Program-made: the position numbers and the translations under genes
In this document: positions 8,496 through 46,286 of the stretch, one piece after another
Layout of the letters: each line of letters begins with the position of its first letter
Numbering within the stretch: the stretch's first letter is position 1
From: a virus
Taxonomy: Duplodnaviria > Heunggongvirae > Uroviricota > Caudoviricetes
Virus record (IMG/VR): IMGVR_UViG_2851976983_000001
Coordinates: 36,474 to 100,473 of that record
Direction: 5' to 3' (one strand)
DNA length: 64,000 bases
Notes under the pieces: generated by a model
Database searches by the model: none
Seen by the model: only the letters and a program-made list of their open reading frames with translations
What the model was told of the DNA's origin: nothing

Positions 8496-8708
8496 TTAAC
8501 AGATTCTGACGGCTAAAGACCCGGAGCCGGTATTGAGAAGCGTGAAGCGTTTGTTGTTAAGTTCGAATATAAAGCCAGTTGTGTCATTCACACCAACCTG
8601 AATCTGCTCATTCGGTAGATCGGTGAGGATGTCAGCTACACACTCATCAGCTAATTTCTGTACGTGTCCGATCTCAAGAGCGATTAGGCTGGAAATAGTG
8701 GTGTTCAT
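8496..8708 (-). CDS. hypothetical small protein
   Basis: 70-aa ORF in an otherwise non-coding, AT-rich divergent region. Confidence 0.3.
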   Translation of the reverse strand: MNTTISSLIALEIGHVQKLADECVADILTDLPNEQIQVGVNDTTGFIFELNNKRFTLLNTGSGSLAVRIC

Positions 8709-8884
8709 TCAATCAATCCATTCTAACTTATACTATGGTAAGGAATACTACTAAAATTTGTATCAATACTGAATACATTCATATCATATGCAAGTTAATT
8801 TTCTTACCTATTTTGGGCTAATTTTTCTCCGTGCAATGGCCTTTAACCGGTCTTTTAAGTGCCTATCGAAAATAATGATAATAG

Positions 8885-8912
8885 CTTTACAACCCTAACC
8901 TTTGATGTAATA
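8885..8912 (+). promoter_or_regulatory. sigma70-like promoter candidate for the HTH gene
   Basis: TTTACA (8885..8890), 16-nt spacer, TAATAT (8907..8912), ~50 nt upstream of the ATG at 8960. Confidence 0.35.
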
Positions 8913-8959
8913 TCGGTAAGCACTTACCAGAGAGAATTGAACGCGCAAAGGTTGTAACC

Positions 8960-9346
8960 ATGTCTGATAACAAGATTGAATTTATAGAAAGTCGCTACGC
9001 TGCTTTTATCGCAGGGTTGATTGAATCCTCACCTATGAGCCAGGCCCAGATAGCCAAAACAATTGGGTATAAAAACGCCAACAACCTTTCTTTAATTAAA
9101 AGTGGCAAAATTCCTTTGCCTATCGATAAGGTTCGTCCGCTGGCGCTGGCGCTGGGTATTGAGCCTAGTCGTCTTATGATGATGGTGCTGGAAGAACGCC
9201 AACCTGAACTCGCAGCATTTTTGTACAAAGAAGGCACCGCTCCTCTTAACGAGGACGAAAAACAGGTTCTTGCTGCATATAACGAGCGATTCGGTAAAGA
9301 GAAAGGCGCATCACAAAAGGTTGTTGAGGCCATAAAGTCTCTATGA
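8960..9346 (+). CDS. helix-turn-helix DNA-binding protein (XRE/Cro-CI-like regulator)
   Basis: SQAQIAKTIGYKNANNLSLIKSGK HTH-like segment; convergent with and overlapping the integrase 3' end. Confidence 0.5.
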   Translation: MSDNKIEFIESRYAAFIAGLIESSPMSQAQIAKTIGYKNANNLSLIKSGKIPLPIDKVRPLALALGIEPSRLMMMVLEERQPELAAFLYKEGTAPLNEDEKQVLAAYNERFGKEKGASQKVVEAIKSL

Positions 9347-10444
9347 AAAATTTACACGAATAAGCTCTGTTGATAGACGATCTCCCTTGAATTTGTGGTC
9401 AATTTCGTCTAAATCCGGTTGATCTACGATTGATGCGATGTACGTCGAGAAACTTTCTAAGGCGTCTCGCATCTCGTCCATATAATCGTGCCGGTCGTAG
9501 ACCCGATCTATCCCCTCAAGACTGTGGTTCATGATTTTGCGTGATACCTCCTGGCTTATGCCTAATGCTGGGAAGTAACTACGCGCAGTACGGCGCAAAT
9601 CTCGGGGTGTAAATGGCTCAAGCTCCATCAGTTCTGGTCGTTCCAGAATACGACGTAATGCCTGGGCTATTGCCACTTTAGACATAGGAAGGTCTTTCCC
9701 GATTTTTTTATTCGAAGGCACGAGCCACTGGCTGTCTTTACCGTATTCGAACAACTCTTCAATGCATGTGCGCATTAATGTGCTTAAAGGCAGCGAATGC
9801 TCACGTGCTGACTTGTTTCTCTTGCCTTGATTCCAAACTCCACGCTTAAGATTGAACTCACTTTTTTTAGCCCGCAGTACTTCGTCAGGTCGTCTTGCTG
9901 ATACAAGACACAGTCTGGCCGCCCATTTTGTACCAGCGCACACATTGAAGTAGTCCCATATATTCCAGAACACCCATACCTCTGCGTCGGTCAGCTTCCG
10001 CTCGCGAGGTGTGGGCTTTGCGCCACCGGCAACTTTGTTTAGTGACATATCGTTTAGCGGTGACACGTCTATCATCCCCTGGAAGGCGCACCAGCTAAGG
10101 AACTGCTTCATCAGAGAGAAAACGCGGCGGCCCATAACAATTTTGCCATCCAATATTAGAGGGTTGACCAGTTGGTTCACCATGAACCTATTAATGTCAC
10201 TTACTTTTACATCAGCAATGTGCGGCAAAACATGTATCAAAATACAATGAACAGCGATCTCTGGCCGACGTCTGGTTATCAGCAGAGATAAGCGAGTGAA
10301 TAACATGAATGCGTCCGAGAATCTCATATCATTGCTAACCTGCGAGATCATAACGGCCTGCATTTGAGATGCTCTTTCGAGATACTCAATCGCCTCTTTT
10401 GAGGTGTTCTCCGCAGCGCGTGCTCTGTCAAAGCTATTTTTCAT
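9341..10444 (-). CDS. int: tyrosine recombinase / phage integrase
   Basis: C-terminal catalytic signature FTPRDLRRTARSY...IMNHSLEG...VYDRHDY (R...HxxR...Y). Confidence 0.85.
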   Translation of the reverse strand: MKNSFDRARAAENTSKEAIEYLERASQMQAVMISQVSNDMRFSDAFMLFTRLSLLITRRRPEIAVHCILIHVLPHIADVKVSDINRFMVNQLVNPLILDGKIVMGRRVFSLMKQFLSWCAFQGMIDVSPLNDMSLNKVAGGAKPTPRERKLTDAEVWVFWNIWDYFNVCAGTKWAARLCLVSARRPDEVLRAKKSEFNLKRGVWNQGKRNKSAREHSLPLSTLMRTCIEELFEYGKDSQWLVPSNKKIGKDLPMSKVAIAQALRRILERPELMELEPFTPRDLRRTARSYFPALGISQEVSRKIMNHSLEGIDRVYDRHDYMDEMRDALESFSTYIASIVDQPDLDEIDHKFKGDRLSTELIRVNFS

Positions 10445-13211: not shown

Positions 13212-13781
13212 TTAGTGGCGTTTGTCTTCTTCCAGACGCGCCGTTTTTAAGTGTTTGTCGGTAAAGGTAAGTAACGTTACGCCCTCATCTTTATTCATGA
13301 AACCGGCACCGTTTATCATCATGATCAGGCGCTCTTTGCCGCGGAATACCTCATAATACTTTCCCGCTGCACATGACATTGTCTTGGCGCACTCCAACCC
13401 ATTCAAGGCTGTTTCATCAAATACCTGATCTTTAGTGGCAACCGGCTTCCCGTATTCTTTCGTAAGCATTTCGTCGAGCTGCATGAAGGTATACTTGCCG
13501 ACGTTGGTAGTCATGCTTGACTCAACTTTGCCATCAATCAATCCACCGGTGGTATGCGGTTCCTTACCTTCAGCCGCTGCTTTATCGAACAAAGCGAAGG
13601 CTTCGATGTTTGGGGTTCGTTTTTCAAAGTGGGTTTTGTACTGGCTCTCAAGGGAGTTTTTGTCCTGACCGATTAGTGTAATTTTATCGACTTCAGACTC
13701 GTTGCATCCCGTGAGTGTGAACGCGATTATTAGAGAGGTGAGAATAGTGAAGTTGCGCTTTTTCATTGATGCTATCTCCAT
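13212..13781 (-). CDS. lipoprotein
   Basis: MKKRNFTILTSLIIAFTLTGC signal peptide with LTGC lipobox. Confidence 0.6.
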   Translation of the reverse strand: MEIASMKKRNFTILTSLIIAFTLTGCNESEVDKITLIGQDKNSLESQYKTHFEKRTPNIEAFALFDKAAAEGKEPHTTGGLIDGKVESSMTTNVGKYTFMQLDEMLTKEYGKPVATKDQVFDETALNGLECAKTMSCAAGKYYEVFRGKERLIMMINGAGFMNKDEGVTLLTFTDKHLKTARLEEDKRH

Positions 13782-25754: not shown

Positions 25755-26422
25755 TATTCTTCTTCCTCCAGACTCAACAGATAATCTACAAATTCTTCAA
25801 ACTCGGCTTCCGCCTTTTTGTCGCGCTCGCTACCGGTCATTTCAAAGATAGAACGACCAGACTCTTCCGCATCATCATAGACGTTGCGGTTATATAGATT
25901 GACTGGCGCAGACTCGATGCCAAACGTCTCAACAATCTCTTTAGCCGCCAGAATGCGAGACACTTGTGATGGCAAAGCCGGGCACTGGTTCATGACCGCG
26001 CGGACCTTCACTTTATCGTTTACATTACGAACATTGTCGATAATAGGATCGATGTCACGCAGAGATTTCAAATCACGACGCTTAGGACGAAGCGGGATAA
26101 TGATAACGTCGGCCATCAGCATCGCTTGTCGCTGAATTTCGGAGTCAAAGCCACCAGCATCTACCACTACATACTCAGCTCTACCCTGAAGCGATTTTAG
26201 GTGCTTAATGATGTCATCCTGAACGTATGCAAAAGGAATCAGCTCAAGGTCTTCGTTCTGTCGACGGTCTTCACACCAGCTCGTTGTCGTGCGCTGAATA
26301 TCTATATCGGTGATATAAACCTTCTTCTTCTTTTTGACTTTCAGGCAAACGGCAATTTGCTGGGCAACGGTGGATTTGCCAGGCCCGCCCTTTGTGCCGC
26401 CAACCACAAAGATCTTGGTCAT
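25754..26422 (-). CDS. parA: ParA-family partition ATPase
   Basis: Deviant Walker A VGGTKGGPGKST; 222 aa, typical of small type Ib ParA. Confidence 0.8.
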   Translation of the reverse strand: MTKIFVVGGTKGGPGKSTVAQQIAVCLKVKKKKKVYITDIDIQRTTTSWCEDRRQNEDLELIPFAYVQDDIIKHLKSLQGRAEYVVVDAGGFDSEIQRQAMLMADVIIIPLRPKRRDLKSLRDIDPIIDNVRNVNDKVKVRAVMNQCPALPSQVSRILAAKEIVETFGIESAPVNLYNRNVYDDAEESGRSIFEMTGSERDKKAEAEFEEFVDYLLSLEEEE

Positions 26423-26568
26423 TGGAGAGTTCCCTTTGCGTATATAATTATCGTCTGAAACAACTTGTTTTCTTATATGTGATATAGCCTAAATGCCTAC
26501 GGCTGTGGTGTAAAGGTTAAATGGTAGGTGCTGCCTTAGAATTTTTAGGCGAGAATCAATGGCTGTTA

Positions 26569-26594
26569 ACAAAAAAGGCGACCAAAGTCGCCTG
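26569..26594 (-). terminator. rho-independent terminator after the 26599..27351 gene
   Basis: On the minus strand: GGCGAC-TTTG-GTCGCC followed by TTTTTT. Confidence 0.6.
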
Positions 26595-26598
26595 ATTT

Positions 26599-27351
26599 TT
26601 AATCTTTTAGGTATAAACCTACTGGAGTTCTTGTTTTGCGGGAGATGATAAGTACGATAAATTTCTGAACGTTAACTTGCACTTTGTTTGGGAGCCAAGA
26701 GCTTAACTCTGCATCAAGCAACAATCCTCTGTTCCACGGCAAAAATCCGGTTTCTTTCCCCATCCCGTACTCGCCTAACACATCCTCGAACGTTTCTGTT
26801 TTGGCATTGTATATACGCACATCGCCGGTTCGCATGAGAGGCCCTGCCCAGATCTTAGCACCAGGAATGGTTTGTGTATCGTCGCAGACTAAATGCTCAT
26901 ACCAATGAAGAAGAAAGAGATAGGTACGGTGACACAATCCTCGCTGACGACGCTCTCTGACAGTTTCGACACCAGCTACCTGGTAACATTCGATCTCATT
27001 ACCGTCTTCAACAAAACTATATTCACGCAGAGCTATCCTACCAGCGATCGTATTTTTGTTTTCGTCCAGAAGCCCGGACTGGAGCACCTCTTTGATAATC
27101 TCTTCTTCAGGGGCATCTTCATCCGCTCGATCTAAGATGAATTCGCTCAGGTCGCCTTGGTCGCGCGCACCTACACGTTCCATAGAGACATACAGGCAAA
27201 TGTCATCTTCTGGTTCAATGATTTCAATTTCTGAGATTTTATAGAGGGAGGCTTCATTGATAAGAAAGCCAAAACGAACAACACGAGTCTCCCCTTTATG
27301 AGGAAACTCGCTTAGATCTTTTGAATATGCGCTATCTAGTGTAGGAGCCAT
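26599..27351 (-). CDS. hypothetical protein
   Basis: 250-aa ORF overlapping the upstream 127-aa gene. Confidence 0.5.
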   Translation of the reverse strand: MAPTLDSAYSKDLSEFPHKGETRVVRFGFLINEASLYKISEIEIIEPEDDICLYVSMERVGARDQGDLSEFILDRADEDAPEEEIIKEVLQSGLLDENKNTIAGRIALREYSFVEDGNEIECYQVAGVETVRERRQRGLCHRTYLFLLHWYEHLVCDDTQTIPGAKIWAGPLMRTGDVRIYNAKTETFEDVLGEYGMGKETGFLPWNRGLLLDAELSSWLPNKVQVNVQKFIVLIISRKTRTPVGLYLKD

Positions 27352-27719
27352 TTTGTAGCAGAATCATCAGCCTTAACCGTGCTGACAATGCTACCATGAT
27401 TGCGTAAGAAGCGGCGAATAGAATGTTCAATAACCTCCGAAAAAGCCTCGATAAAACGAGACAGCTCAGGGTACTGTTTAGCTGGCTTGACTACAAAACG
27501 AACACGACCATTCAGGTAAATTGCTTCAGCTAATGGCTTCACGCTTGCACCAGCGCGCTCAACATCGTCTTTGAAGGTAACGATGAAGCGTGAGTCTTCC
27601 GGTTCAATAGCGTCATTATTGAGCTTACGTACTTCAAGCTTGTGCTGATTCAGCACATGAGTCTCGATAATACTCGTGCAATCGCGAATAGTTTGTATAG
27701 AACGTTTCTCGTTCAGCAT
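27336..27719 (-). CDS. hypothetical protein
   Basis: 127-aa ORF; first gene of a two-gene unit downstream of the lysis cassette. Confidence 0.5.
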   Translation of the reverse strand: MLNEKRSIQTIRDCTSIIETHVLNQHKLEVRKLNNDAIEPEDSRFIVTFKDDVERAGASVKPLAEAIYLNGRVRFVVKPAKQYPELSRFIEAFSEVIEHSIRRFLRNHGSIVSTVKADDSATKWLLH

Positions 27720-27943
27720 GTGTCCACCTTAGCCGTTAACACAAGTGTCATTGCGGCACCCCTCTCGGGGTTGAAGGCTACGAGGATGCGTAGCCTGTAT
27801 GTGCCCACTTACGTGGATGCCTAATAAATCTACATCAAATTACTAAATGATTCAACATGAGCTTGAGTGAACAGGCGTGTATATGAGTGAAGATGCCATC
27901 TTTAGGATAAAAGGTAAACTGAGACCACTCATCAATCATCGCC

Positions 27944-28171
27944 TCAGTTCAGGTGCCCCCACTCACACAGCCTTTCACCTATCGTATTGTGGATAAGCAA
28001 CTGTCGCTCCGTTTCCTCAGTCATAAAATCCTCTCTACTCACATAGATAGGATTTGCAGCATCGCAGAATAGCACGCCTGGAGCCTGCGTCTTAATCACG
28101 CACCCATTTATCAAGCAGCTCGCGATGAACACCAGAGGCATCTTTTTGCCGCACTTCATTAACCGTTTCAT
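27944..28171 (-). CDS. outer-membrane spanin candidate (Rz1-like lipoprotein)
   Basis: MKRLMKCGKKMPLVFIASCLINGC with lipobox, encoded in an alternative frame overlapping the 3' part of the Rz-like gene; start uncertain. Confidence 0.5.
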   Translation of the reverse strand: MKRLMKCGKKMPLVFIASCLINGCVIKTQAPGVLFCDAANPIYVSREDFMTEETERQLLIHNTIGERLCEWGHLN

Positions 28172-28343
28172 TTTTGACATCCACTGTGCTTTGAAGTCGT
28201 TTTCTGTCTTCCTGTTTTGCCTTCTCTTCCATTGCTCGTCGCGCCGCATTTCCGCCCATCGTGTAAGCGCCGACAAGAACGAAAAGAACGGCAGCCAGCG
28301 TAATCAAAGCAACTTTTAGCTTTGTCATCAGGCTGCCTAGCAT
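28092..28343 (-). CDS. inner-membrane spanin candidate (Rz-like)
   Basis: N-terminal TM ALITLAAVLFVLVGAY followed by a charged region. Confidence 0.55.
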   Translation of the reverse strand: MLGSLMTKLKVALITLAAVLFVLVGAYTMGGNAARRAMEEKAKQEDRKRLQSTVDVKNETVNEVRQKDASGVHRELLDKWVRD

Positions 28344-28344
28344 A

Positions 28345-29064
28345 TTAGACCATCCCTTTCTGGTGTCTTCTTACCTGCGACCAGGCGATAAATCCAGCCA
28401 CAACAATAGTGGCAATACCGAAGATGATGCGTACTGTATCCCCGCTAGAGATATGACCTTGTGCTTTATCCATAGCAGCGGAAACCTGCGGCATAACATC
28501 TGCCAGCTGCGCCAGACCAATACCTGCTGTAACAGTTGCGCCAGCGGTTTCTTTAGTTACAGGAACAGCCTTCACGGTTTTCACCGGCTTAACGACGCCA
28601 GCTCGACGCAGACCTTCCTCAATAACTTCTGCCGCATACCAGGTGTTCAGCGTTTTTAGTGGACCTCGACCATTCTCGTGGCGAATGATTGCCTCAACCA
28701 AAGGTCGAAGGATGTCGTAATCATGCAGATCGATGATCATGTCTGCGGTTACACCAACGGCTTTAGACACCTCATTAATGTAGGCGTCAGTGTTGTTTTC
28801 ATTCGGCGGTGCCCAACGTTCAATAACTTCACGAATGGTATCGATACTTGAGCCGTCTTTTGCGCGACGTTTGTCGTGGTAGGTAATTAGAGTCACCGCC
28901 AGCGCACGAATCCCCCAAACAGGGTCTTTAAACGTGCAAAAGCGCGGTTCGTCTGGATTCGCAACCAGACCTTGCCACGGTGATCCTTTATCAAGATTAC
29001 CGGGGTTATTATTACGAATGCCTCTCGGAGTCTTCATCCTTGATCTCCTGTTATTGCAGTCCAT
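28345..29064 (-). CDS. lysis-cassette protein, possible endolysin/peptidoglycan-associated with C-terminal TM anchor
   Basis: Sits between holin-like and spanin genes; N-terminal GIRNNNPGNL motif; C-terminal hydrophobic helix IIFGIATIVVAGFIAWSQV; enzymatic class not established. Confidence 0.35.
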   Translation of the reverse strand: MDCNNRRSRMKTPRGIRNNNPGNLDKGSPWQGLVANPDEPRFCTFKDPVWGIRALAVTLITYHDKRRAKDGSSIDTIREVIERWAPPNENNTDAYINEVSKAVGVTADMIIDLHDYDILRPLVEAIIRHENGRGPLKTLNTWYAAEVIEEGLRRAGVVKPVKTVKAVPVTKETAGATVTAGIGLAQLADVMPQVSAAMDKAQGHISSGDTVRIIFGIATIVVAGFIAWSQVRRHQKGMV

Positions 29065-29386
29065 TTTTTACGCCATACGCGGCTAACCCCAAAAGCAGTG
29101 CAGTAATAATGAACGACGTTATTTTAGAAACAATGCCGCCAAAGAACCCACTGGAGATGGAATCTAACCGGTTAAGGAGCTTGTCCAGGTTGGAGTGTTG
29201 AATACTATGTTGCGCTGGGGTCATATCACCAAAGTAGGTTTTCAGCTGATCATTGACCTCCTGGCCAATTTCTTCACGTAGCTCTTTGCCTAATTTGCCA
29301 ACAACCTCCCGAGCAACGATCGCGGCAATACGCTCAACTTGCTCTGTTGTAACGCCCGCCATCTCGTTCGACATGTTTTCCTCCAT
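29051..29386 (-). CDS. holin-like small membrane protein
   Basis: 111 aa with C-terminal TM ITSFIITALLLGLAAYGV; first gene of the lysis cassette. Confidence 0.45.
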   Translation of the reverse strand: MEENMSNEMAGVTTEQVERIAAIVAREVVGKLGKELREEIGQEVNDQLKTYFGDMTPAQHSIQHSNLDKLLNRLDSISSGFFGGIVSKITSFIITALLLGLAAYGVKNGLQ

Positions 29387-29452
29387 GAAAAGTCAAATCG
29401 GGATGGCGGATTTATATCACATTTCACCCTTTTGTTGTAGGTGTGTACTTAC

Positions 29453-29689
29453 CTACCATTCAGCATTGCAACGGACTGATGAGAAAGCACCTACTCCTAC
29501 CCATCGCCAGTTATAGATGCTACCCGCTTTGTATAAGGTATAGTCGTTCACTTTTTTAACAGCATATATGGGTATGACTGTCTCCTGTCCACCAATGATA
29601 GCCTCACCATAACATATAGGTGTCGGCAATTTCTGGCAGCCAGTAAGAGAGAGAACAACAGCTATTGTTAGAAATAATCTTTTCATCAT
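29453..29689 (-). CDS. small lipoprotein
   Basis: MMKRLFLTIAVVLSLTGC signal peptide with LTGC lipobox; 78 aa. Confidence 0.6.
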   Translation of the reverse strand: MMKRLFLTIAVVLSLTGCQKLPTPICYGEAIIGGQETVIPIYAVKKVNDYTLYKAGSIYNWRWVGVGAFSSVRCNAEW

Positions 29690-29696
29690 TTACTCA

Positions 29697-30305
29697 TCAG
29701 TTATACAGATTTCTATTTATTACCGGTACTCTGCCATTTACGCTAAAACTATGGCCGCCATTAAGTTGGTTTACGAATATAGAGCTAACAGTATTTCCAT
29801 ATGCCGCATATCCATAAACCATTGTCATGGCCCCGCCCGGTACTGGAACCGCGAACACATTTGCATATGTTGGGATTATCGCTGGCGGGTAATCAAAAAC
29901 ATGCCCTCCAGAACTGTTCCACTCCGTATTATTAAGAAAGGTAAATGAAAGTGGGATATTTGCCGTATTATAGATCTCCTCTCCTCGCGCATTGAAAAAA
30001 CTCATGCCCCAAGTTTCTTTTTTGGCTATACCTTTCGAAAATACGTATATCGTGGCACTAGAGTCGCTACCCTGACCTCCGAAACTGTAAATCACCTGGT
30101 TGTTACGCACTATTCTGTTGGCTATTAATGAAACAGCTTTCGAATAGGAAACAAAAATCATCGGTGAACGATCTGGAGATATTTGGGTGTTAAACTCTGT
30201 CCCGCCAGACAAAGAAACAACCTGCTTTCTCTGAAAAACGATAGGAGACAAAGAAGGAGACATCCAGACCTTCCCGTCAGATCGATATATCTTGCTTCCG
30301 TACAT
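29697..30305 (-). CDS. hypothetical protein downstream of the tail fibre
   Basis: 202-aa ORF. Confidence 0.5.
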   Translation of the reverse strand: MYGSKIYRSDGKVWMSPSLSPIVFQRKQVVSLSGGTEFNTQISPDRSPMIFVSYSKAVSLIANRIVRNNQVIYSFGGQGSDSSATIYVFSKGIAKKETWGMSFFNARGEEIYNTANIPLSFTFLNNTEWNSSGGHVFDYPPAIIPTYANVFAVPVPGGAMTMVYGYAAYGNTVSSIFVNQLNGGHSFSVNGRVPVINRNLYN

Positions 30306-30559
30306 TATTTTTGAAAAACCAATATGTTTAAATTGCCACTAGCTCCAGACCATGAAATGGTATTTCCAGAAACCGTAAGACTTGTGTATTTCCCATTGGT
30401 TACGTCCATTATGTAATAGTCGATTCCCAATCCCGCCTCAACCTCATATGTTCTACTTCCAGAACCAGAGGGAGTAAAATAATCGAGGTAATAAACAGGG
30501 GCCAACGCATCGACCATCTCCTGTCTTGATGGCGACCATACCTGTGCACCATAGCTCAT
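30305..30559 (-). CDS. hypothetical protein downstream of the tail fibre
   Basis: 84-aa ORF; start overlaps the next gene's stop. Confidence 0.45.
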   Translation of the reverse strand: MSYGAQVWSPSRQEMVDALAPVYYLDYFTPSGSGSRTYEVEAGLGIDYYIMDVTNGKYTSLTVSGNTISWSGASGNLNILVFQK

Positions 30560-32023
30560 AAATATATCCTTATACTTTTAAGCAGGGGCTGGTTTAGTTC
30601 CAGCCCCGATTGAAGTTGTTTATTCTTTAGGTGAATTTAACTTCGTTTCAAGCTCCTCAACCCTTTTGGTCAATTGCTGAATATGATGAATGAGTGGTAC
30701 AACCAAACGCTCATACATCACCCCTTCAGCGACCATACCATTTGAGGAAATATCTTCTGGAGAATCATTATTTGTTGGTTCACGCCAATGGACATATTGC
30801 GGGGCAATCTCACCTACCTCTTCAGCAATAAGGCCGTAATACCCCCAATCCTTTCGGTCACCTCGACAAATTGAACGATACCAAACAGGTCTTAATGACA
30901 AAAGTTCATCAGCATATCGATCTTGTAATGTTTCAATATCCTTTTTATAGCGCCTTGAAGATGTTGAACGCCAAACTGTATTGATACCTGGGTTTGGATC
31001 AATGTACATATTGGCACCGCTAGTAGTTGTGCCAATATCCCATATAGCAAACCCTCCACTACCGCCTGATTTGACAACCAGTGTTTCAGCAATAATATCC
31101 AGGTTGCCACTATAGCCTGTCAGTGATGATCTGCTTGCATAGGAACTTAGAAGGTTTGTTACCTCTGTTTTCGTGTAAGCATTAAGGTTAGCCGCAGTCA
31201 AAGTAATATCGGCAGAGCCATCAAACGCCACACCAGCAATTTTCCTTGCTGTCTGCAATTTTGTGGCTGTTGCGGCATTACCAGTAGTATTCTGATTACC
31301 GGTTGTATTCACACCAGGGATTGAATCCTTAGCAGTATATACCTGCGCCCACGCTGACCATGCCGCATCTGTGGTATCTCTTCGTGAGCGAATGAAAACT
31401 GGCGCATGTGCACCGCTCGTACCACTCCAGCCAATAAGCAACTCGCCCTCACCAGCAGCACTCGCACCTTTCATGTGCAATACGTTGCCATACGTGGTCG
31501 GATAGCTATTGTTGTACGCCTCGTACATTTGAATGCCAGCAGTGCCTTGAGTAGAGCCGCTTAATGCCGTAACTCGGCCACGAGATACCAGTGTATTAAT
31601 GTTGATATCGCCTGAGCCATCAAACTTAACACCATTGATGTTTCTCGCTGTTTGCAACTTCGTAGCTGTTGAAGCATTACCGTTCAAACTACCATTTACG
31701 CCACCAGTCACATTTAGTCCATTACCAATTGATACCGCACCGCTGGTATTATTAATTGTAATAGGTCGCAAACCGTTCCATGAACCTAATGTGTCTCCTG
31801 ATGCTGTTAGCATGAAATATGTGTTCGATCCATCATTACGGATAAAGAACCCAAAGCTACCGTAAGCAATGCGGAAACCATTTGCATATTTTGAAATGAT
31901 CTCACCAGAAGACGTTAATCCGCCAGTTAACGCTCCTCCAGATAGTGGTAAAGCTCCGACATCAGCCGCAGTAGGCTTGTTTTTAGTGTTATACGCTCTG
32001 CGCCATCCTGGTTGGATTTGCCC

Positions 32024-32929
32024 CTATATTTCCAGACATCTGTTATCACTTAACCCATTACAAGCCCGCTGCCGCAGATATTCCCGTGGCGAGCGATAAC
32101 CCAGCGCACTATGCGGATGCCATTCGTTATAATGCTCGAACGCCTCTGCAAGGTTCTTTGCTGCCGTTAACCCGTCTGGTTTGGGCATGATACTGATGTA
32201 GTCACGCTTTATCGTTTTCACGAAGCTCTCTGCTATTCCGTTACTCTCCGGACTCCGCACCGCCGTGTTCTTCGGTTCAAGTCCCAACATCCGGGCGAAC
32301 TGGCGTGTTTCATTAGCCCGGTAGCATGAACCATTATCCGTCAGCCACTCCACTGGAGACGACGGAAGATCGTTGCCGAAGCGGCGTTCCACCGCTCCCA
32401 GCATGACGTCCTGTACTGTTTCACTGTTGAAGCCGCCGGTAGTCACCGCCCAGTGCAGTGCCTCACGATCACAGCAGTCCAGCGCGAACGTGACACGCAG
32501 TCTCTCTCCGTTATCACAGCAGAACTCGAACCCGTCAGAGCACCATCGCTGATTGCTTTCTTTCACGGCCACTCTGCCTGTATGTGCCCGTTTCGATGGC
32601 GGTACAGCAGGTTTTCGCTCAAGCAACAGCGCATTCTGGCGCATGATCCGGTAAACACGTTTGGCATTGATCGCAGGCATACCATCAAGTTCTGCCTGTC
32701 TGCGAAGCAGCGCCCATACCCGACGATAACCATACGTGGGCAGCTCTCCGATAACATGGTGTATACGGAGAAGCACATCCGTATCATCAGTGTGACGACT
32801 GCGGCGGCCATCCATCCAGTCATCGGTTCGTCTGAGAATGACGTGCAACTGCGCACGCGACACCCGGAGACAACGGCTGACTAAGCTTACTCCCCATCCC
32901 CGGGCAATAAGGGCGCGTGCGCTATCCAC
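32024..32929 (-). CDS. insD: IS2 transposase OrfB
   Basis: 301 aa, recognised as IS2 InsD. Confidence 0.9.
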
Positions 32930-33252
32930 TTTTTTGCCCGTCCATATTCAACGGCTTCTTTGAGGAGTTCATTTTCCATCGTTTTCTTGCCGAGCAGGCG
33001 CTGGAGTTCTTTAATCTGCTTCATGGCGGCAGCAAGTTCAGAGGCAGGAACAACCTGTTCTCCGGCGGCGACAGCAGTAAGACTTCCTTCCTGGTATTGC
33101 TTACGCCAGAGAAATAACTGGCTGGCTGCTACACCATGTTGCCGGGCAACGAGGGAGACCGTCATCCCCGGTTCAAAGCTCTGCTGAACAATTGCGATCT
33201 TTTCCTGTGTGGTACGCCGTCTGCGTTTCTCCGGCCCTAAGACATCAATCAT
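32887..33252 (-). CDS. insC: IS2 OrfA (HTH)
   Basis: [41 protein letters not shown]...; ORF-track start trimmed to the IS2 orfA ATG. Confidence 0.9.
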
Positions 33253-36134
33253 CTGTTCTCCAATGACTAGTCTAAAAACTAGTATTAAGACTATCACTTA
33301 TTTAAGTGATACTGGTTGTCTGGAGATTCAGGGGGCCAGTCTACTGGTGAATAGCTCGTCCCGTTAAATACATAGATAAACTCCGCATTAGTGAGAGCAC
33401 CAGAGACACTCGTCGTTGTGGCCGTTGTTATACGGATCGTATAATTGTTTGAGCTACTACCGTTATTAAATACCTCTATAACAGCTCCTGCTAATGGAAT
33501 AACGCCACAACCAGTTTCACTATTTGGTATGGTTGCACTATTGGCATAGGCCCACGCACATCGAGCAATCCATGACTTTGTGTTAAATGCTCCATTATTT
33601 TGCAATAACGTCACTAACTGTGCTGTTGTTATTGCTCCGCCATTACTTCCTGTAGTTAACCAACCAGTAGGAGATGCCGGGCAACCTATATTTGCTGGCG
33701 ACAAGGAAATATTTGCCGAGCCGTCAAACGACACCCCATTGATAGTACGCGCAGTCTGCAACTTCGTAGCAGTAGCCGCGTTGCCCGTTGTATTCTGATT
33801 ACCAGTCGTATTAACACCTGGCAAATTAATATTCGCAGTACCATCAAAGCTCACGCCGCCGATAGTTCTTGCCGTCTGAAGTTTTGTAGCAGTTGCAGCA
33901 TTACCAGTGGTGTTCTGATTACCCGTAGTATTTACACCTGGAAGGTTGATATTTGCAGAACCGTCGAAACCAACTCCACCGATAGATCTTGCCGTCTGCA
34001 ATTTCGTTGCTGTACTTGCATTACCATTTAATGTTCCGGTGATCCCACCAGTAACAGACAACGGACCTGAAACTGTTCCTCCGGTTGTTGGCAGTGCTCC
34101 AATATCTAACGGCGTCGGTTTCTGATGTGTGCTATACATCGTATAAACAACACCATCGGTAACGCTGGAAGGCTTACTAGCTGAATATGTTGGCGATGTA
34201 TAAATAGAAACTGTCGCATTTGCAGTACAATCCCAATGGATATTTACACGAGTCGCATAATTGCCAATCTCAACGTAAATATCATATGTATCGCCGGATG
34301 TGTTGATCCAGGCGAAATTCGTTAATCCGACAGCTGTACGCTTCCACAAAGCACCTGTAATCCCTTTGGGGTTTCCATTGCCTGCTCGTAGAACCAGTTC
34401 TGAAATGCCTGCCTGATGTGGGGAGCCGACGTTGTAACCAGCGCCACCAATCAATGCGATGTAAACGATGGAACTCGCTTGTGGCATTGTAACAGTAGCC
34501 AGTTTGAACCACCCGGCCCCGCCAGAGAAAGACATCGTTATTGAATTTAAAGTACCAATATCTTTCGGCGTTAATGTGATATCCGCAGTCAGTGCTTTCC
34601 CGTTAATTTTTCGGTTAGATGGCACCCTGCTGTTCGCATTGTCATTGACTACTTTAACTGCTTTTGGCGTTGCGGCCAGCGATTCACTGGTGCTGTCGAC
34701 AGCACTGCTAAGTTTCACAACACCTTTAGTTGTAAGGCTTGCGTCTTCCATCGCAACTGCACCGGCAATCTCTTCAGCACGATCAGCAGCAGCTTCCGCA
34801 CGGGTCGCAGCGGATTCAGCAGCAGTTTTGCTCTGAGATGCTGCCGTCGCACTGCCTGCCGCCTCTGTTGCTTTCGTGGATGCCGTCGTGGCGCTGCCCT
34901 TCGCTGCTGACGCCTGTCTGGTCGCCTCATCTTTTGAAGCAGACGCAGATGATGCCGATGACGCTGCCGAACTGGCGGACGATGCGGCTGCCGTTTTTGA
35001 GGATTCTGCACGGGTTTCCGACGCTTTCGCGTTCGTTTCGGATGTCTTCGCTGCGGAAGCAGACCTCGCTGCTGCGCTGGCCTGTTCAGTGGCTTCGCCA
35101 GCCTTCGTTGTGGCTGTTGAAGCAGACGATGCGGCACTTTCTGCCGATTTTCCGGCGGCGGTGGCACTGGCTGAGGCCTGCCCGGCACTTGTTGACGCGG
35201 CACTGGCAGACGACGCAGCCGCTGTTTTTGAGCCTGCCGCAGCCGAGGCGCTCTGTCCCGCTGCCGTTTCAGAAGACCTGGCGTTCGTCTCGGACGTTTT
35301 TGCCGCCTTCGCGGAATTTCCTGCCGCCGTTGCCGAGGAAGCGGCATTACTGGCGCTCGAGGCTGCGCTCGTTTCTGATGATTTCGCTGCCTCTTTTGAG
35401 GCCGCCGCATCCCGGGCTGAGGTGGCAGCTTCTGACGCCTTCGTGGTCGCGGTGGATGCAGAAGTGGCTGCAGATTTTTGTGACGCTGCAGCATTCGTTT
35501 CAGACGTTTTCGCGGCACCGGCACTGGTGGCCGCCGCGCTTTTTGAGGACTCTGCAGCGGATGCACTTTGAGACGCTTGAGAGGCTTTTTCTCCAGCGGT
35601 ATTGGCGCTTTCTGCTGCTGCGGCAGCACTGGCCGCCGCCTCACGAGCTTTGTCGCCAGCAGCATCAATCGCGTCAGTGTTATTTTTATACCACTCAACG
35701 TTTTCGTTGTGCTCGTTGACGATCTGCATTAGCGGCTTAACGGCCACTTCTGTACCGTCTTCACGCTCGATTGTCACCTCATCCAGAGCAGTCAACCAAC
35801 TGCGCATGGACTTGGAATCAGCCGACATACGCGACATTAGTGCTGTAAAGCGCGCGCTAAACTGTGTTAAGTCGCCTTCATAGGTCGTAATGATTCGGCA
35901 CGGAACTTCAGACTGAGTTTCGCCGGTATAAGGTTCTGAGAGAACAATGTTCGTATCACTGGTTACGCGCTTGATCTCATACAGCTTATTGTCGGGGCCA
36001 ATGACGATCATCCCCGGCAACACACCATTAGCTGTTACGTTCCAGGCTGTCCCTGCCCCAACCAGAGTATTGCTGCCCTGTGTAAATGTGATAGTACCTT
36101 CCCTGTACCACATGTTGAATATGCTCCTTGATTT

Positions 36135-36155
36135 GGTGGGCTATCCTTGCCCACC
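36135..36155. promoter_or_regulatory. hairpin between the J-like stop and the tail-fibre start
   Basis: GGTGGGC-TATCCTT-GCCCACC; preceded on the minus strand by an ATAAGTA-type palindrome (36156..36176). Confidence 0.4.
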
Positions 36156-39100
36156 ATTAAGTATGTACCTACTTATTTTTACCTATATAAATATTTTTTT
36201 CTACATTACAGAAGGCCAATTCTTACTCGTAGGACGTTGTTATCGTCATAAACGTCAATCCGCTGACCATTTATGACCAGTCGCCCATTACCCCCGCTAT
36301 TACCGTTGATCTCAAGCGTTCCATTTTTGCCGAACCGCCATCCAGATCTACCGCTAACAAAATTGGTAGATTGCAGATCGCCTACTTTTGCATTGGTGAT
36401 TGTGCCATCCTTGATATACGCACCATTCATATAGGCGATACTGTTTTCGATAACAAATGGCGTGGTGATCTTCCCGTTAACAGAGTTGACCAAACCAAAC
36501 CTGTCAGCCTGCACCAAAAACTGAGAAAGGCCAGTGGTGTCGATACCAAGCGCAATACCAGCAACATACTTCTGCCCTCCGCTCGTTGAAGTCTCCATTT
36601 TCAACGTCCACGCGGTTGACACTTTTTTGTTGGTATCAGCAATAGCTGTTGCCTGCTGTTGAATTGTCGCGGTATTTCCATCCACCTCTGCTTTCAGAGT
36701 GTCGATTCGCCCACTTAGAGCATTATCTGCCTGCGTTCTCGCTGTCGTTTCAGTTGTGACCGCCGCAGAAATGTTGGCTGCTGTTTGAGACTCTAAGTTT
36801 GTGATTTGAGTCGCCAATGCCGCATCTTGCTCTGTACGCGTTTTCGTTTCGGTTGCTACAGCCGCTTTAATATCCTCTTTGTATTGAGAGGTCAGCTTGG
36901 TGATCTGAGACGACAACGCCGAGTCAGCATCAGTTCGAGCCTGCGTTTCAACTGCAACGGCCGCACTAATATCTTTCGCTGTCTGTGCTTTTAAACTTGA
37001 AACCTCTTTTGTTAAAGCGGTATCACCATCAGCACGAGCCGTTGTTTCTCTGGCAAGAGATGCCTCGAGATCATTAGCTTTTGCTGTAAGAGACGAAATC
37101 TGAGTGGACAATGCACTATCGGCATCAGTCCTTGCCTTTGTCTCTACAGCAACCGCTGCGGCAATATCAGTTCCGGTTTGTGCTCGCAGGCTGTTAATTT
37201 CTCGTGAGAGCGCCTGGTCAGCACTTGCTCTGGTCTCCTGCTCCTGAGTGATGGCAGCGGATATATCACCGTCAACCTTTGACTGAAGCTGGTTTATTTG
37301 TTTGGCTAACGCAGAGTCCCCGCTTGCTCGGGCCTCCTGCTCACTACGTATTGCAGCAGAAATATCATCATCAACCTTTGCCTGAAGTTGGGTGATCTGG
37401 CTTGCCAGAGCCGAATCTTCCGTTGCTCGGGCTTCTTGCTCTTCCTTAATAGCTGCGACGATATCGTTGCTTACTTTCGACTCAAGCTGAGTGATCTGTG
37501 TCGTCAGAGCTTCATCGGCAGATGTGCGAGCCTCCTGCTCTGTACTAATCGCCGCGCTGATATCTCCTTCAAACTTAGATTGCAGCTGAGTGACACGCTT
37601 TGCCAACGCTTCATCGCCATCGGCACGAGCGGTGGACTCTTCCAGAATACTGGCCTTAATGTCTTCGCCAATTTCTACGCGAATTTCCTCAACCTTCGTG
37701 GCCATTGCAGACATATCATCAGCAAAGGTTTTCTGTGTTGTTGCGATCTTCGCGTTATTGACCATCTGCTTGTGCTGGTCTTCATCTTGACGAAGAGCCA
37801 GGTCAATATTTGTTTTGGCTAACGCCTCAATGTTCGTAGTCAGTTCTGCACTGGCACGATCGACCTCTGCAACCGTCTTTTTCATTTCTTCAACGGCAGC
37901 GGAGCTTTCCTCTACCGTTGACTGCAACACTTCCAGTTGTTTAGCGTTTGCAGCATCGCCTTCAACACGAGCCTCGCTTTCCTTAGCAATAAGAGCCGCC
38001 GCTTCATCTCTTGCAGCCTTTATTGCCTCGACTGTATTAGCGAGAGCTTTATCGTGTTCAGATACGGTGTTTTCGATTTCAACAATTGCAGCATCAGTAG
38101 CATCAATTTTTTCAAACGCTTCATTGACCTTGTCGATCGTTGCCGAAACCTCACCTTTAAGCTCGGTTTGTGCGTTCTCCAAAGCATCGCTACGCTCGTT
38201 GAATTTTATTTCAAAACCCGCGAGGTTATCGCTGAACTGCTTATCTAATTCAGCTATATCTTCCTTAACGTCGTTTACCGACCCCTCCAAAGATTCGACG
38301 CTCTGGTTGATATGCTCATTTAACTCGTCAACTGCTTCTTGAGAGGCTTTGCTGTTGATGTCCTCAAGCAGAGCCTGACCAAGCTCGGAAGATGTAATTT
38401 TGCCAGCCAGGAACGACAGTACATCGCGAGTTGTCGCCTCTGTACCCAAGTTTGAGTTCGGAGGGCTTAACATACCTCGCTTGTTCGATGCTCGAACCCA
38501 GTAATACCACGTTTCGCTATCCCCAAGACCAGCATGTGTAAAGGTGGTGCTTGCAGACTCTGCGATCAGTTTCGCCGTATCCAGATTGTTGGTCTGGGAT
38601 GCGTAAACATTAATGTGATCAAGGTCTACCGAATCTGGATTAACCCAATTCAGTATCACATTACGATAGTCTCCAACGGCCGTTAATGACGTTGGGGCAT
38701 CCGGCGGTGTCATTGTGCCCAACACCTGATAAACGGTACTGATAATCTCTGTTTTTTTACCGTTGAATGAAACCGCATACAGTTGGAAGTCGTAGTGTCC
38801 ATTCTCCGCGACATTAACGATTTCGTATTGCTCTTCGGTTACACGCGCCGATTGCCAGTTCGATACATTGTTTTCATCAGAACGTCGCCAACTGATCCAA
38901 TACTCTGGAGATTTTCCTTCCCATGTTGCAGTCAGTTTTACTGACAGGTTGCCCGGGCTTGAGAGATAAGTCCCTTCAGTGATTTGCAGATTAGATGGCT
39001 TGGAGTAAGTTGGGTCCAATACCGTCGTATTCTGCGGGATCAGCGTTGCGCCATTGTCGATTGCCTCATATTTAGACGGATTGTTCTCAACAGCGGTGAT

Positions 39101-39229
39101 GTCAAAGCTACCCGGCGTTTCCCCCTGCGCGATGTTAACGATGCGAACGCGCATAGGTTCGAGATCTGGTTCTGTAATTGTCCAGACACCGTTCAAAACA
39201 GGCGTTTCCGCTGACGACAGGGCTTTTGA

Positions 39230-41174
<1,945 letters not shown>

Positions 41175-41199
41175 ACTTCCTGAGAAAGAGGTAAACAGG

Positions 41200-41522
41200 A
41201 TGACTAAAAATACTCGTTTTTCCCCCGAAGTCCGTCAACGGGCAGTCCGTATGGTTCTGGAAAGTCAGGATGAATATGACTCACAGTGGGCGGCAATTTG
41301 TTCCATTGCCCCAAAGATTGGCTGTACGCCGGAGACTCTGCGTGTCTGGGTTCGCCAGCATGAGCGGGATACCGGGGGCGGTGATGGTGGGCTCACCAGC
41401 GCTGAACGTCAGCGTCTGAAAGAGCTGGAACGTGAAAATCGTGAACTGCGCCGCAGTAACGATATCCTTCGCCAGGCTTCCGCTTATTTTGCGAAGGCGG
41501 AGTTCGACCGCCTCTGGAAGAA

Positions 41523-41526
<4 letters not shown>
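41200..41526 (+). CDS. IS3-family transposase OrfA
   Basis: [57 protein letters not shown] (HTH + leucine zipper). Confidence 0.9.
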
Positions 41527-42551
<1,025 letters not shown>

Positions 42552-44219
42552 CGATTTTGCCTTCCTGATTCAATATCCGAATAAAGCTGCCACTTTTAGC
42601 TAACGACACAGGCGCATCGAGAGTGATGCTGTTTTTGGTAAACTCCACAATTCGACCGGAGTTACGTTTACCTGCACGATATTTGTTCTGAATCAGAACG
42701 GTTTCACCAGGCATCAGAAATGAGGCGTCTAAGCCGGCAGTAAATGTAATTACATCCGACTCCATTCTGGCGGTATACAAAAGCCACAAACCAACTCGGT
42801 GAGCCTGGCCTCGGCTTGTACATCCAAATGCTACGACTTCTGTTTTACGCTCACCATAACGGCGCATTGCGTCCTGATCTTCAACGTATTCGATGTTTTG
42901 CTTATAACCGTCCTCCTTGTTGTTGTAGGTTACGAGCGCAACGGATGGGCGATCTTTACGCGCAGAACCTTTATAGGTAAACAGTCCATCTTTGACGTTG
43001 GAGTTGGTAAACATCATTACCGGATCTGATGGGCTATCCTGCATGATGTTAACCATGCCACCAGCCCAAAACACCATGCCGCGGAATGCACCGGCAATAT
43101 CCTGAATTAATCGGTATGCGTCTTGTCGACTGGTGATCTGCGTATTGATTGCAAAGCGTTTCTCTTTACCCCCAAAGCCATCATCGACCTCTTCGTCACA
43201 ATATCGACCAATCTGGTAGAGCTGGCCGAGGTCAATCATGGATTCCGACACAAATTGCCCAAGACCATACCGAGTATTGGTAAGCAAATCGTAGAGAATC
43301 CACGCAGGGTTTGAAGAAGACAACAGCTTAAAAGTACCGTCCCATACGCCGACATAAGTATTGGTGTATTCGTTGTAGTTTGACGGTACTCGGATTTTGA
43401 TACCGCGCACCAAATACGAACGGGAAGGGATTGTGCTACCAAACTGCTCTGAATTGACCTTCAAGCCAACAAGAGCAGAGTTAGGGTAGTTCATTGGCGT
43501 GTCGACAATCTCACCGATGGAATCAACCCATGTGTCGTTGTAGAGGTACTGGCTACTATTATCATCTGTAAGACGAATCACCCTAACCTTGTATGCACGA
43601 CCAGGCTTAGGCAGTTTCAGCTCATAGCTACGGTAATACACGCCGGTTTTCTTTGCCGTTAGCGTGATATCAACGCTTTTCTCACCTTCTGCCACTACAT
43701 CAGAAAATGTTGCGTCTGCGTTGGCGATCTGGAATTTGTACTTCACCGTAGTGCCATTTGTATCGCCAGAGCTTTTATCAACGCTACGTAAAGAGGGGAA
43801 TTTCATGATGACACGAACGCGATCAGCTTCATCGTTATCGATTGAAACCGTAACGTCGTGTGTTTTTTTAAGCTGAATATTTACGGACTTAGGCGTTTCG
43901 ACAAAATCAAAACCAGCCATTGGCGTCTGATCTTGTGAGCCGTCACGAAAATCCCATGTAATACCGCTGAAGTTGGAAGAGCCATCTTCATTCAAGATCG
44001 GTAAATCGTCGATGAAGATCGACTTTGCGCCATTTACCAGGCCACCGATAACCCCCTCGCCAAGAAGGTCGAGGATGGCTGCCATAGCACGAGAATTGAC
44101 AGTATCATCAGCTTCAACCGGGGTACGGCTGGAGCTTTTACTTTTCTTGCCACCAGCACCGGCAATAAGAAGCGGTAATTTTTTCTTCTTGAACTGTTCC
44201 ATGTCCAAAAAATCCTTGA

Positions 44220-44810
44220 TTACATAAGCTGGTCGATGGTGATAGAAGAACTCACGACCTGTGAGCCAACTAAAATTTCCTCGCCATAGATAAGCTGTAC
44301 AGGGTTCCCCTGGTTTGTTGTGTTTTGAGGTCCATCAAAGTAATAAGAGTTCGAGTTATCCGCCTGCCTCACACTTTCGTTAGTGGCTTGCGGAGATATG
44401 ATTTGCGCTATACCGCCCATCATCAGTGACAAACCGAGAGGCGCAAGAGCGGGCACCCATATCGAGGCAACCATTAATACTGCTCCAACAACCGTCTGAA
44501 ACCATCCAAAAGCAGATCCACCACTTCCTCGCGGAACAGGGGTAATGCGGATTTTTGCAATATTGTCAGACTGCCCCATCATCTGATATTCACTCTCGTC
44601 CACAGACCACTTGTGGCCCTGTTTATTGGTGATCTGGATGTGGTATCTGTCATAGGTTTTGATATTGCGCTTCATCCATGCTTTAAACCCAGGCTTGTTG
44701 GCCTCAATTAAATCCAGAGCCTGTTTTGTATTACGCACCTTTAGATGCCAGTGGCGGCCAAAATGTTTGGCCATAGGGCCGCCAAGCTGCACATGAACTA
44801 ACTCAGACAC
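44220..44810 (-). CDS. tail assembly protein, lambda gpI-like
   Basis: 196 aa; hydrophobic central segment; position between K-like and J-like genes. Confidence 0.65.
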   Translation of the reverse strand: MSELVHVQLGGPMAKHFGRHWHLKVRNTKQALDLIEANKPGFKAWMKRNIKTYDRYHIQITNKQGHKWSVDESEYQMMGQSDNIAKIRITPVPRGSGGSAFGWFQTVVGAVLMVASIWVPALAPLGLSLMMGGIAQIISPQATNESVRQADNSNSYYFDGPQNTTNQGNPVQLIYGEEILVGSQVVSSSITIDQLM

Positions 44811-45622
44811 GTCTCATCTCCCTTGAGCAAGTCTCTGTGACGCAAGTGATGCGTCGTATGTTTCTGATACATCCCGCCGTAATAAGCACGACAACTAAGG
44901 CGGTCGATCTGGTGATGAAGAATCATTCCATCGCCGATATAAACCGCACAGTGGTCAGGCATTTTTCCGTATTGGATAAAGAAGACGTCCCCACGTTGAG
45001 GTTCTGTTCCGGGCGCAAGCCGTACCAATCCTTCGTTTCGGTAGTTCTGATCGAGAATGTCGTTATCGCCGGTGTACCACGATGGAATATGCAGGTGTGC
45101 GTTCGGGTTTAGTTCGACGTTAAACTCACGCTTCAAATAGTCCCGACACAACATCCAGCAATCAAATACGCCAAATACATACGGTCTGCCCAGGTATGGC
45201 ATTTCGAAACCATCAGGAGTGATCACATTCATCTCGCTAAAATGGAAAGGGGCATCTCCCTCAACATTCTTGCGAATAGCCAGAATCATCCACGGAACTT
45301 CCGTCGCTTCGCAGCCTGCACGATCGGCATCAGATGCTTCTGCTGATTCATCAGTATGTGAATGCCAGATTGCGATAACATCACCCGCATCCTCTGCCGC
45401 CATAATGTCGTCAACGTGCATTACAAAAGTGTTCTGCGGGTTCTCCGAAACATTCCGCGCTTCCATAAAGCGATATTTGTCGCCATTAGTTCTAACCAGA
45501 AAGCCACACGCTTCATTAGGGTAGCGATTTATGGCGCAGAGATAGATTTGCTGCATAACGTCAGAGCCAAGCTCAGGGATTGCTTTATTACCCATACCGC
45601 GTAGCTCCAATAAATCCGCCAA
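44798..45622 (-). CDS. tail assembly protein, lambda gpK-like (JAB/MPN + NlpC/P60)
   Basis: EACGFL...HSH JAB-like motifs and DCWMLCRDY NlpC/P60-like Cys motif. Confidence 0.75.
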   Translation of the reverse strand: MADLLELRGMGNKAIPELGSDVMQQIYLCAINRYPNEACGFLVRTNGDKYRFMEARNVSENPQNTFVMHVDDIMAAEDAGDVIAIWHSHTDESAEASDADRAGCEATEVPWMILAIRKNVEGDAPFHFSEMNVITPDGFEMPYLGRPYVFGVFDCWMLCRDYLKREFNVELNPNAHLHIPSWYTGDNDILDQNYRNEGLVRLAPGTEPQRGDVFFIQYGKMPDHCAVYIGDGMILHHQIDRLSCRAYYGGMYQKHTTHHLRHRDLLKGDETCLS

Positions 45623-46286
45623 AATGGATCACACCGTCGGCAAAATAATTCCGACGCGCATTACAGGCGTCATAACGTTTTGTGCAGTAATCAGCACCAG
45701 ACATAGACGTCTGCTGGTTATTTTTGTCGAAATATGGACCGGTATAGCCGCATTCTGGCCCTCGGTATTTCCACGGGCAGGTGTTTTTAATGATCTGACG
45801 ATACGGCAGTTGCACCCCCATCAAATCGAACACACTGGACAATTCAAACTCGACAACCTGATGAGTTTCGAGAGTTTTCTGTTCGATAAACCACATTTCA
45901 TCCGGGAAATGTTGGTTTGGATCTGCTGTTGGGTTGCCGTCTTTAAAATTAACGGCATCGAGGAAGCGAGCCAGCGTCATCTTGCGAATAATGCGGCAGC
46001 CAACAAGATCGTCGTTCGCCTGAACTTCCGCAGAGACGGTTCCGGCAAAGTTCGATACCTGAATTTTTGGACGTGGCAACGTTCCCTGGCCAGTTTTGTC
46101 AAAGCCTGATGCTTTGATTGGCCACGGCTCGTATGTCACTCCTTGCCAGACGACCGGTTGCATCAGTTCGTTTGTTCCGGCGTGGAAGAATAGCTTCCCC
46201 CCTGAAGTTGTGTTCGACATATCCAGTACGAACAACTCAATGAGTGCAGAGGGAGATAAGCTCTGAATATCAGCTTTAATTCCCAT
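45588..46286 (-). CDS. minor tail protein, lambda gpL-like
   Basis: Collinear with lambda L (...VVWQGVTYEPWPIKASGFD..., C-terminal Cys cluster); start trimmed to MGIKADIQ with AAGGA RBS. Confidence 0.8.
   Translation of the reverse strand: MGIKADIQSLSPSALIELFVLDMSNTTSGGKLFFHAGTNELMQPVVWQGVTYEPWPIKASGFDKTGQGTLPRPKIQVSNFAGTVSAEVQANDDLVGCRIIRKMTLARFLDAVNFKDGNPTADPNQHFPDEMWFIEQKTLETHQVVEFELSSVFDLMGVQLPYRQIIKNTCPWKYRGPECGYTGPYFDKNNQQTSMSGADYCTKRYDACNARRNYFADGVIHFGGFIGATRYG

Follow-up and report, generated by a model that had tools for sequence, protein, structure and literature searches.

The extended cor cassette has been described in phages T1, HK022, N15, ES18 and phi80, all of them FhuA-dependent, and in the BASEL collection all three genes together were exclusive to FhuA users (10/10) (PMC13164509). 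In small siphoviruses, the locus downstream of gpJ is regarded as the one for receptor specificity, encoding RBP, accessory and exclusion proteins (PMC8594841; bioRxiv 10.64898/2026.04.02.716166); within the extended cassette, proteins of the gp23 family are taken to be putative receptor-binding or accessory proteins (PMC13164509; bioRxiv 10.64898/2026.04.02.716166). Cor inactivates FhuA functionally, and Llp of T5 binds to FhuA at its periplasmic face, with an allosteric effect (bioRxiv 10.64898/2026.03.26.714494; PMC9586334). The two lipoproteins are reported to share a common fold at ~20% identity (bioRxiv 10.64898/2026.03.26.714494; PMC13164509; PMC9586334) and to have an intramolecular disulfide in common (PMC9586334). 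Cor-like proteins have also been found in BtuB-using phages (PMC13164509).

The DNA analyzed here, a stretch of 64 kb (the window), is, judged from its nucleotide matches, part of an E. coli phage-plasmid of the SSU5/pECOH89 type. Over 2.5 kb around the gene of interest, identity was 100% to plasmid p503829_100 (NZ_CP025870.1) and 98% to pECOH89, and 19.9 kb (window positions 26001-45900) matched p503829_100 at 99.995%. The lysis genes matched those of phages Cyrano, PhiR41_1 and SSU5. A single pairwise comparison gave two nucleotide differences between the gene and its counterpart in pECOH89.

The gene, cor, is located at 29453..29689 on the minus strand and was read from an ATG start as a 78-aa prolipoprotein (MMKRLFLTIAVVLSLTGCQKLPTPICYGEAIIGGQETVIPIYAVKKVNDYTLYKAGSIYNWRWVGVGAFSSVRCNAEW). 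Homologues began to align with the window protein at its second Met (pairwise alignments), so the true start may be the ATG at 29686, which would give 77 aa. The precursor has a predicted signal peptide of residues 1-17, with K3/R4, an h-region without charge and the lipobox L-T-G followed by C18, and a Gln at position +2. This signal peptide and lipobox (MMKRLFLTIAVVLSLTG, directly before C18) are of the lipoprotein type expected of the Cor family, in which the lipobox Cys is near residue 17-18. The PROSITE-type lipoprotein rule was satisfied, and of the 812 ORFs in the 64-kb window with an ATG start and a length of 40 aa or more, only 3 distinct ones fitted that rule. The Pfam model LPAM_1 gave a weak match to the window protein, at 17.2 bits, below the cut-off of 20. 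A 78-aa lipoprotein with an LTGC lipobox, as the earlier note had described it, was thus confirmed. The mature protein comprises 61 aa (6.8 kDa) and contains conserved Cys26 and Cys74. Lipoproteins are sorted according to the residue at +2, and by this rule the Gln predicts an outer-membrane location; mature Cor is most likely anchored there facing the periplasm. A second predicted lipoprotein with an LTGC lipobox was observed elsewhere in the window (13212-13781, minus strand; 189 aa, or 184 aa from the ATG at 13766; MKKRNFTILTSLIIAFTLTGC...). It belongs to PHROG 15156 (E 1e-110), for which PHROG gives the function as unknown.

Family membership was assessed with curated profiles. The window protein matched PHROG 1119 ('Cor superinfection exclusion protein') with E 8.9e-31 over profile positions 1-78 of 78, and the NCBIfam equivalog model NF047972 (lamb_exclu_cor, 'phage exclusion lipoprotein Cor') with 80.6 bits against a cut-off of 31 (E 6.1e-23), a full-length match to a curated Cor model above its cut-off. 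In RefSeq the gene has the name 'cor: phage exclusion lipoprotein Cor', both on NZ_CP025870.1, the plasmid of 100% identity, and on other plasmids, and the SSU5 homologue (SSU5_025) has a Cor-like annotation in the SSU5 record. Identity to the window protein was 57% for SSU5, 53% for a Stx-converting phage, 49% for HK75 (HK022 type), 43% each for phi80 and N15, 33% for grams and 28% for T1. Identity between the Cor proteins of T1 and phi80 is only 38% though both phages depend on FhuA, and the window protein is nearer to phi80 Cor than T1 Cor is; by these identities it falls within the range of Cor proteins from FhuA-dependent phages. The SSU5, Stx-phage and window proteins form a subgroup of their own, 53-57% identical mutually and 43-49% identical to lambdoid Cor.

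In an alignment of 60 homologues, C18, C26, G56 and C74 were invariant, and G34, V39, A55 and F69 were conserved in at least 90% of the sequences, so that both the Cys pair and the core motif of the family are present; C26 and C74, the second and third Cys, appear to correspond to the disulfide reported for Llp and Cor. A profile built from 8 Cor proteins returned 278 matches from a word index of 5.8 billion proteins, compared to only 4 near-identical fragments for the single-sequence query in the same index, and phmmer against 1.84 billion representatives returned 18 clusters only. One metagenomic protein of 1,087 aa (P0124) scored E 8e-24 against Cor. It consists of ~19 perfect 57-aa tandem repeats and was rejected as a relative because its score was the sum of 19 weak stretches over these repeats; an artefact of assembly or of repeats is the probable explanation. 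Given the full-length family matches and the hundreds of homologues, the reading of cor as a chance ORF was rejected, and on these comparisons it is a real gene. The window gene is almost certainly a member of the Cor family, and a function in exclusion is highly probable. The earlier guess of a superinfection-exclusion lipoprotein is therefore supported by PHROG 1119, by NF047972, by the 43-49% identity to Cor of phi80, N15 and HK75 and by the RefSeq name; homology to a tail-assembly component, named beforehand as what would refute it, was absent for Cor in Pfam, PHROGs and NCBIfam. The annotation as Cor was already public in RefSeq and in the SSU5 record, and the finding is in this respect correct but ordinary.

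For the structural comparison, the best match to Cor among predicted viral structures was a Cor protein of a Dhillonvirus, followed by lipoproteins of T5-like phages, and by its model the window protein resembles Llp in fold. Foldseek against the PDB gave nothing significant for Cor, and Llp was absent from the top 50. When the Cor profile was run against PDB sequences, Llp (8a60_B) was reached at E 0.08, with the signal peptide and ~25 residues aligned; pairwise BLASTP of Cor against an approximate Llp sequence aligned the signal peptide alone and was given no weight. In the profile comparison, nothing significant beyond the signal peptide was found between the Cor and Llp sequences, and the E of 0.08 agrees with the reports of a shared fold at ~20% identity.

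Two genes precede cor. The 84-aa gene (30305..30559, minus strand; PHROG 557, E 1.3e-24) is the first of the cassette and a homologue of N15 gp22, phi80 gp22 and T1 ST32; the 202-aa gene (29697..30305, minus strand; PHROG 425, E 6.6e-49) is a homologue of N15 gp23, phi80 gp23 and T1 ST31. PHROG 557, 425 and 1119 therefore follow each other in order on one strand, with the content and order of the extended cassette, and the same order was found in N15, HK75, phi80, T1 and SSU5. The PHROG 557 and 425 families include N15 gp22/gp23, phi80 gp22/gp23, HK75 p21/p22, T1 ST32/ST31 and grams gp50/gp51; in those genomes the gp22/gp23-type genes directly precede cor, and in T1-like phages they face it. 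Identity to the counterparts in N15, phi80, HK75, T1 and grams was 18-24% for the 202-aa protein and 24-26% for the 84-aa protein. Receptor-specific RBP families have been delimited by >30% full-length identity (bioRxiv 10.64898/2026.04.02.716166), and both proteins fall below this value, with homology still clear at profile level. No PADLOC model matched any of the three cassette proteins. [quoted passage not shown] By eye, no obvious N-terminal signal peptide was seen in either protein. Across phages, the N-termini of the 202-aa and 84-aa families are alike in an M-x-YG-x-x-hydrophobic motif.

The last ~200 aa of J were 30-39% identical to J of phi80, T1, N15, HK75 and grams. As evidence for FhuA use this was dropped, as the domain occurs in 1,606 phage records, including phages of Klebsiella, Pseudomonas, Vibrio and Burkholderia; the likeness is also non-discriminating because J of Cyrano is 98% identical and the cassette is absent there.

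The stop of the 202-aa gene and the start of cor are separated by 7 nt in the window and by 11 nt in SSU5. N15, phi80 and HK75, in contrast, have a ~110-nt spacer before cor, with room for a promoter of its own, and in T1 cor is on the opposite strand. A consensus scan for promoters and terminators around cor gave sites no more often than in shuffled sequence, with none directly upstream of cor; the regions upstream of cor in the window and SSU5 showed coding-type conservation only, and no Rfam element was found in 28900-30700. Directly downstream on the minus strand is the lysis cassette (27944..29386), made up of holin (29051-29386), endolysin (28345-29064), the Rz i-spanin (28092-28343) and the Rz1 o-spanin (within 27944-28276); the spanins were assigned with PHROG 1026 and 1275 (27944-28343). 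With the holin on one side and the 202-aa gene, the 84-aa gene and the side fibre on the other, cor was found where the earlier note had placed it, between the lysis cassette and the genes downstream of the tail fibre. From the 7-nt gap, the lack of a detectable promoter of its own and the lysis genes directly downstream, cor probably shares a transcript with the late genes for tail and lysis, which would fit an Llp-like role in lytic growth. The 66-nt spacer between cor and holin (29387..29452, minus strand) had no detected terminator. It contains a motif, TGTGATATAAAT, that resembles an extended -10 element; as the motif lies within a block kept in cassette-less relatives, it may serve to transcribe the lysis genes as their promoter.

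Among sister elements, Cyrano and PhiR41_1 are relatives without the cassette; their homology to the window extends from the lysis genes across this spacer as far as 29455, where the stop codon of cor has its first base. The cassette is absent from Cyrano, p2018-11-1BCC_2 and pPK8276, and PhiR41_1 and pAVS0747-B have other small genes (PHROG 1361, 1443) between the tail-fibre genes and holin. These form an unrelated small pair, among or after the tail-fibre genes in some sister elements. In many sister phage-plasmids the C-terminal part of J is 98% identical, yet the whole cassette is missing. In SSU5-like phage-plasmids, the interval between side tail fibre and holin is a host-range locus of hypervariable content. 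To count the allele, a 374-nt query, reaching from the cor-holin spacer across cor into the 3' end of the 202-aa gene, was run against 5,426 complete E. coli genomes; 167 genomes matched part of it and 64 carried this cor allele, always on plasmids. Outside the SSU5 group, the nearest Cor relatives were in Stx-converting podophages (Sepvirinae), adjoining a tail fibre adhesin, where a blocking of the phage's own receptor by Cor is not obvious. In the Stx-related vB_EcoP_phi367, a relative 58% identical to Cor (tblastn) is located at 4986-5213, and gp22/gp23-like genes are found 3 kb away at 8454-9355, beside lom.

The copy in the window carries insertions in two tail genes. A complete IS2 (32013-33343, 1331 bp, with InsC/InsD ORFs) lies inside the side tail fibre gene and is flanked by a target duplication of 5 bp (32008-32012, 33344-33348) relative to Cyrano. 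It splits off the N-terminal ORF (33294-36113) from the C-terminal part of the fibre (30620..32012, ORF 30620-31813, minus strand), which bears a peptidase S74 intramolecular-chaperone domain. J, the tail-tip gene, is interrupted relative to pECOH89 by a 3.26-kb block of IS100 (istA/istB) and an IS3-family element (39285-42548), leaving fragments with ORFs at 36206-39313 and 42535-44208. The sequence suggests that this copy of the phage-plasmid is tail-defective; with side fibre and J both split by insertion sequences, infectious virions from it are unlikely. The intact cor could still protect the host of such a copy.

Taken together, the locus is likely to encode a Cor-family superinfection-exclusion lipoprotein of an SSU5/pECOH89-like phage-plasmid that would inactivate FhuA. 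Lipoproteins are exported, lipidated and cleaved by an established pathway, and the Cor precursor would accordingly be exported, lipidated at Cys18 and freed of its signal peptide after Gly17. The fold predicted for the 61-aa mature protein is a small SH3-like beta-barrel, probably held together by a disulfide between Cys26 and Cys74, as the model and the invariant cysteines suggest. It would then bind the periplasmic side of FhuA, a TonB-dependent transporter, and lock it in a state unusable by T1, T5, phi80, N15 and HK022-type phages; this step is modeled by homology and analogy on Cor genetics and on the structure of T5 Llp. Cor being the last of a gp22-like/gp23-like/cor series that accompanies FhuA use in other siphoviruses, FhuA is probably the terminal receptor of intact members of the group. 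Speculatively, Cor made late would shield the infected cell and keep progeny off debris. These proposals draw on sequence features, family membership, the cassette and fold resemblance, from which we infer the target and effect of Cor.

Several observations count against this explanation, namely the position of the cassette after the side fibre, the cassette-less sisters, the nearest outside relatives in Stx-converting podophages, the lack of a cor promoter, the null Foldseek result and the E of 0.08 for Llp. With J and the side fibre disrupted in this copy, no virion can benefit from its Cor, which also speaks against it. For SSU5 a single receptor has been reported, the LPS core oligosaccharide, to which the tail fibre binds (PMC4138488, PMC12312913), and the literature search found no experiment on an SSU5-group Cor and no link between SSU5-type elements and FhuA. 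The assignment of FhuA is weakened by that receptor and that missing link, by partner proteins less than 30% identical and by the Cor-like proteins of BtuB phages; by analogy with the characterized Cor proteins the evidence still tilts towards FhuA as the target.

The 18-26% identity of the 202-aa and 84-aa partners to their counterparts in FhuA phages could also be read as the mark of a Cor-family lipoprotein retargeted, for example to BtuB or another TonB-dependent transporter, to match a diverged receptor-binding pair upstream. Many TonB-dependent transporters have been put forward as targets of Llp-type lipoproteins (PMC9586334), Cor-like proteins accompany BtuB use in some phages (PMC13164509), and the SSU5, Stx-phage and window proteins stand apart as a subgroup (53-57% mutual identity against 43-49% to lambdoid Cor). 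Nevertheless, among phages with known receptors the complete cassette is found only with FhuA use (PMC13164509), the NCBIfam equivalog model was passed by a wide margin, and the window protein is nearer to the Cor proteins of phi80, N15 and HK022 type than T1 Cor is, all from FhuA users; retargeting is considered unlikely. A defence of moron type, in which Cor inactivates FhuA against unrelated phages and the carrier itself uses another receptor (heterotypic exclusion), would agree with LPS core as the sole published SSU5 receptor (PMC4138488, PMC12312913), with nearest relatives that adjoin a tail fibre adhesin in Stx podophages, with sister plasmids that have nearly the same J without the cassette, and with a cor kept intact though this copy cannot make functional tails. 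We regard it as improbable, since cor begins 7 nt from gp22/gp23-like genes that are elsewhere tied to FhuA recognition and is without the separate promoter and ~110-nt spacer that mark it as a moron in N15, phi80 and HK75.

A small outer-membrane lipoprotein like Rz1, encoded directly upstream of holin and downstream of tail genes, might be expected to serve lysis or virion assembly, as an o-spanin-like lipoprotein or a tail-assembly factor, instead of exclusion. An o-spanin gene lies in or beside an i-spanin gene, whereas cor does neither and has no spanin match, and Rz and Rz1 are encoded separately, at 27944-28343 (PHROG 1026 and 1275). Pfam, PHROGs and NCBIfam gave no similarity to a spanin or tail chaperone, and Cyrano and other sister elements keep the same lysis cassette without cor. 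The spanin and tail-assembly readings were rejected on the separate Rz/Rz1, the lack of family similarity and the absence of the gene in sisters, and such a role has hardly any probability left. The reading retained is the exclusion lipoprotein of the Cor family, probably directed at FhuA.

As a known annotation within a known cassette, cor is of limited interest in itself; the mildly interesting point is the use of FhuA by SSU5-type phage-plasmids and the cross-protection of their carriers. Phage-plasmids of the SSU5/pECOH89 type frequently carry CTX-M-15 in E. coli, and the LPS core is the only receptor published for this group. From the cassette it can be predicted that these phage-plasmids, a widespread ESBL-carrying group, have FhuA as their terminal receptor. 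It can also be predicted that carriers may gain cross-protection against phages that depend on FhuA, a point that bears on the choice of therapeutic phages against such strains. More tentatively, and with somewhat less than even confidence in the whole, the observations may be joined into one reading: SSU5/pECOH89-type phage-plasmids would use FhuA terminally via a strongly diverged gp22/gp23-type module relocated to a place after the side tail fibre, Cor from the multicopy plasmid would give carriers resistance to T1-, T5- and phi80-like phages, colicin M, albomycin and microcin J25, and sister plasmids that have the cassette (~64/167 among complete E. coli genomes) and those that lack it would represent two types of host entry.

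Compared with the described systems, the window protein resembles Cor of phi80, N15, HK022/mEp167 and T1 in size (a precursor of 75-78 aa and a mature protein of ~60 aa), in its lipobox, in its Cys pair and in the AG..F/NW.WV motif, and in those systems cor is preceded by the same two families, gp22-like and gp23-like, as in the window. The classical cassette follows gpJ directly, whereas in the window, SSU5 and pECOH89 it is not immediately downstream of gpJ and comes after the side tail fibre (and tfa in SSU5). The carrier of the window and SSU5 genes is a large phage-plasmid, unlike the classical Cor phages, and the partner proteins are much more diverged from the classical systems (18-26% identity) than Cor itself (43-49%). 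With regard to Llp of T5 (PDB 8A60, 7QJF), the cor gene of the window differs in that it does not adjoin a receptor-binding gene of pb5 type. Rtp45 of phage Rtp, which is LptD-directed (PDB 9RPS), and the RBP-locus exclusion proteins downstream of gpJ are likewise small, encoded beside receptor-specificity genes and part of a swappable host-range locus; Rtp45 belongs to another protein family with another target than the window Cor, and similarity between the two was not detected here.
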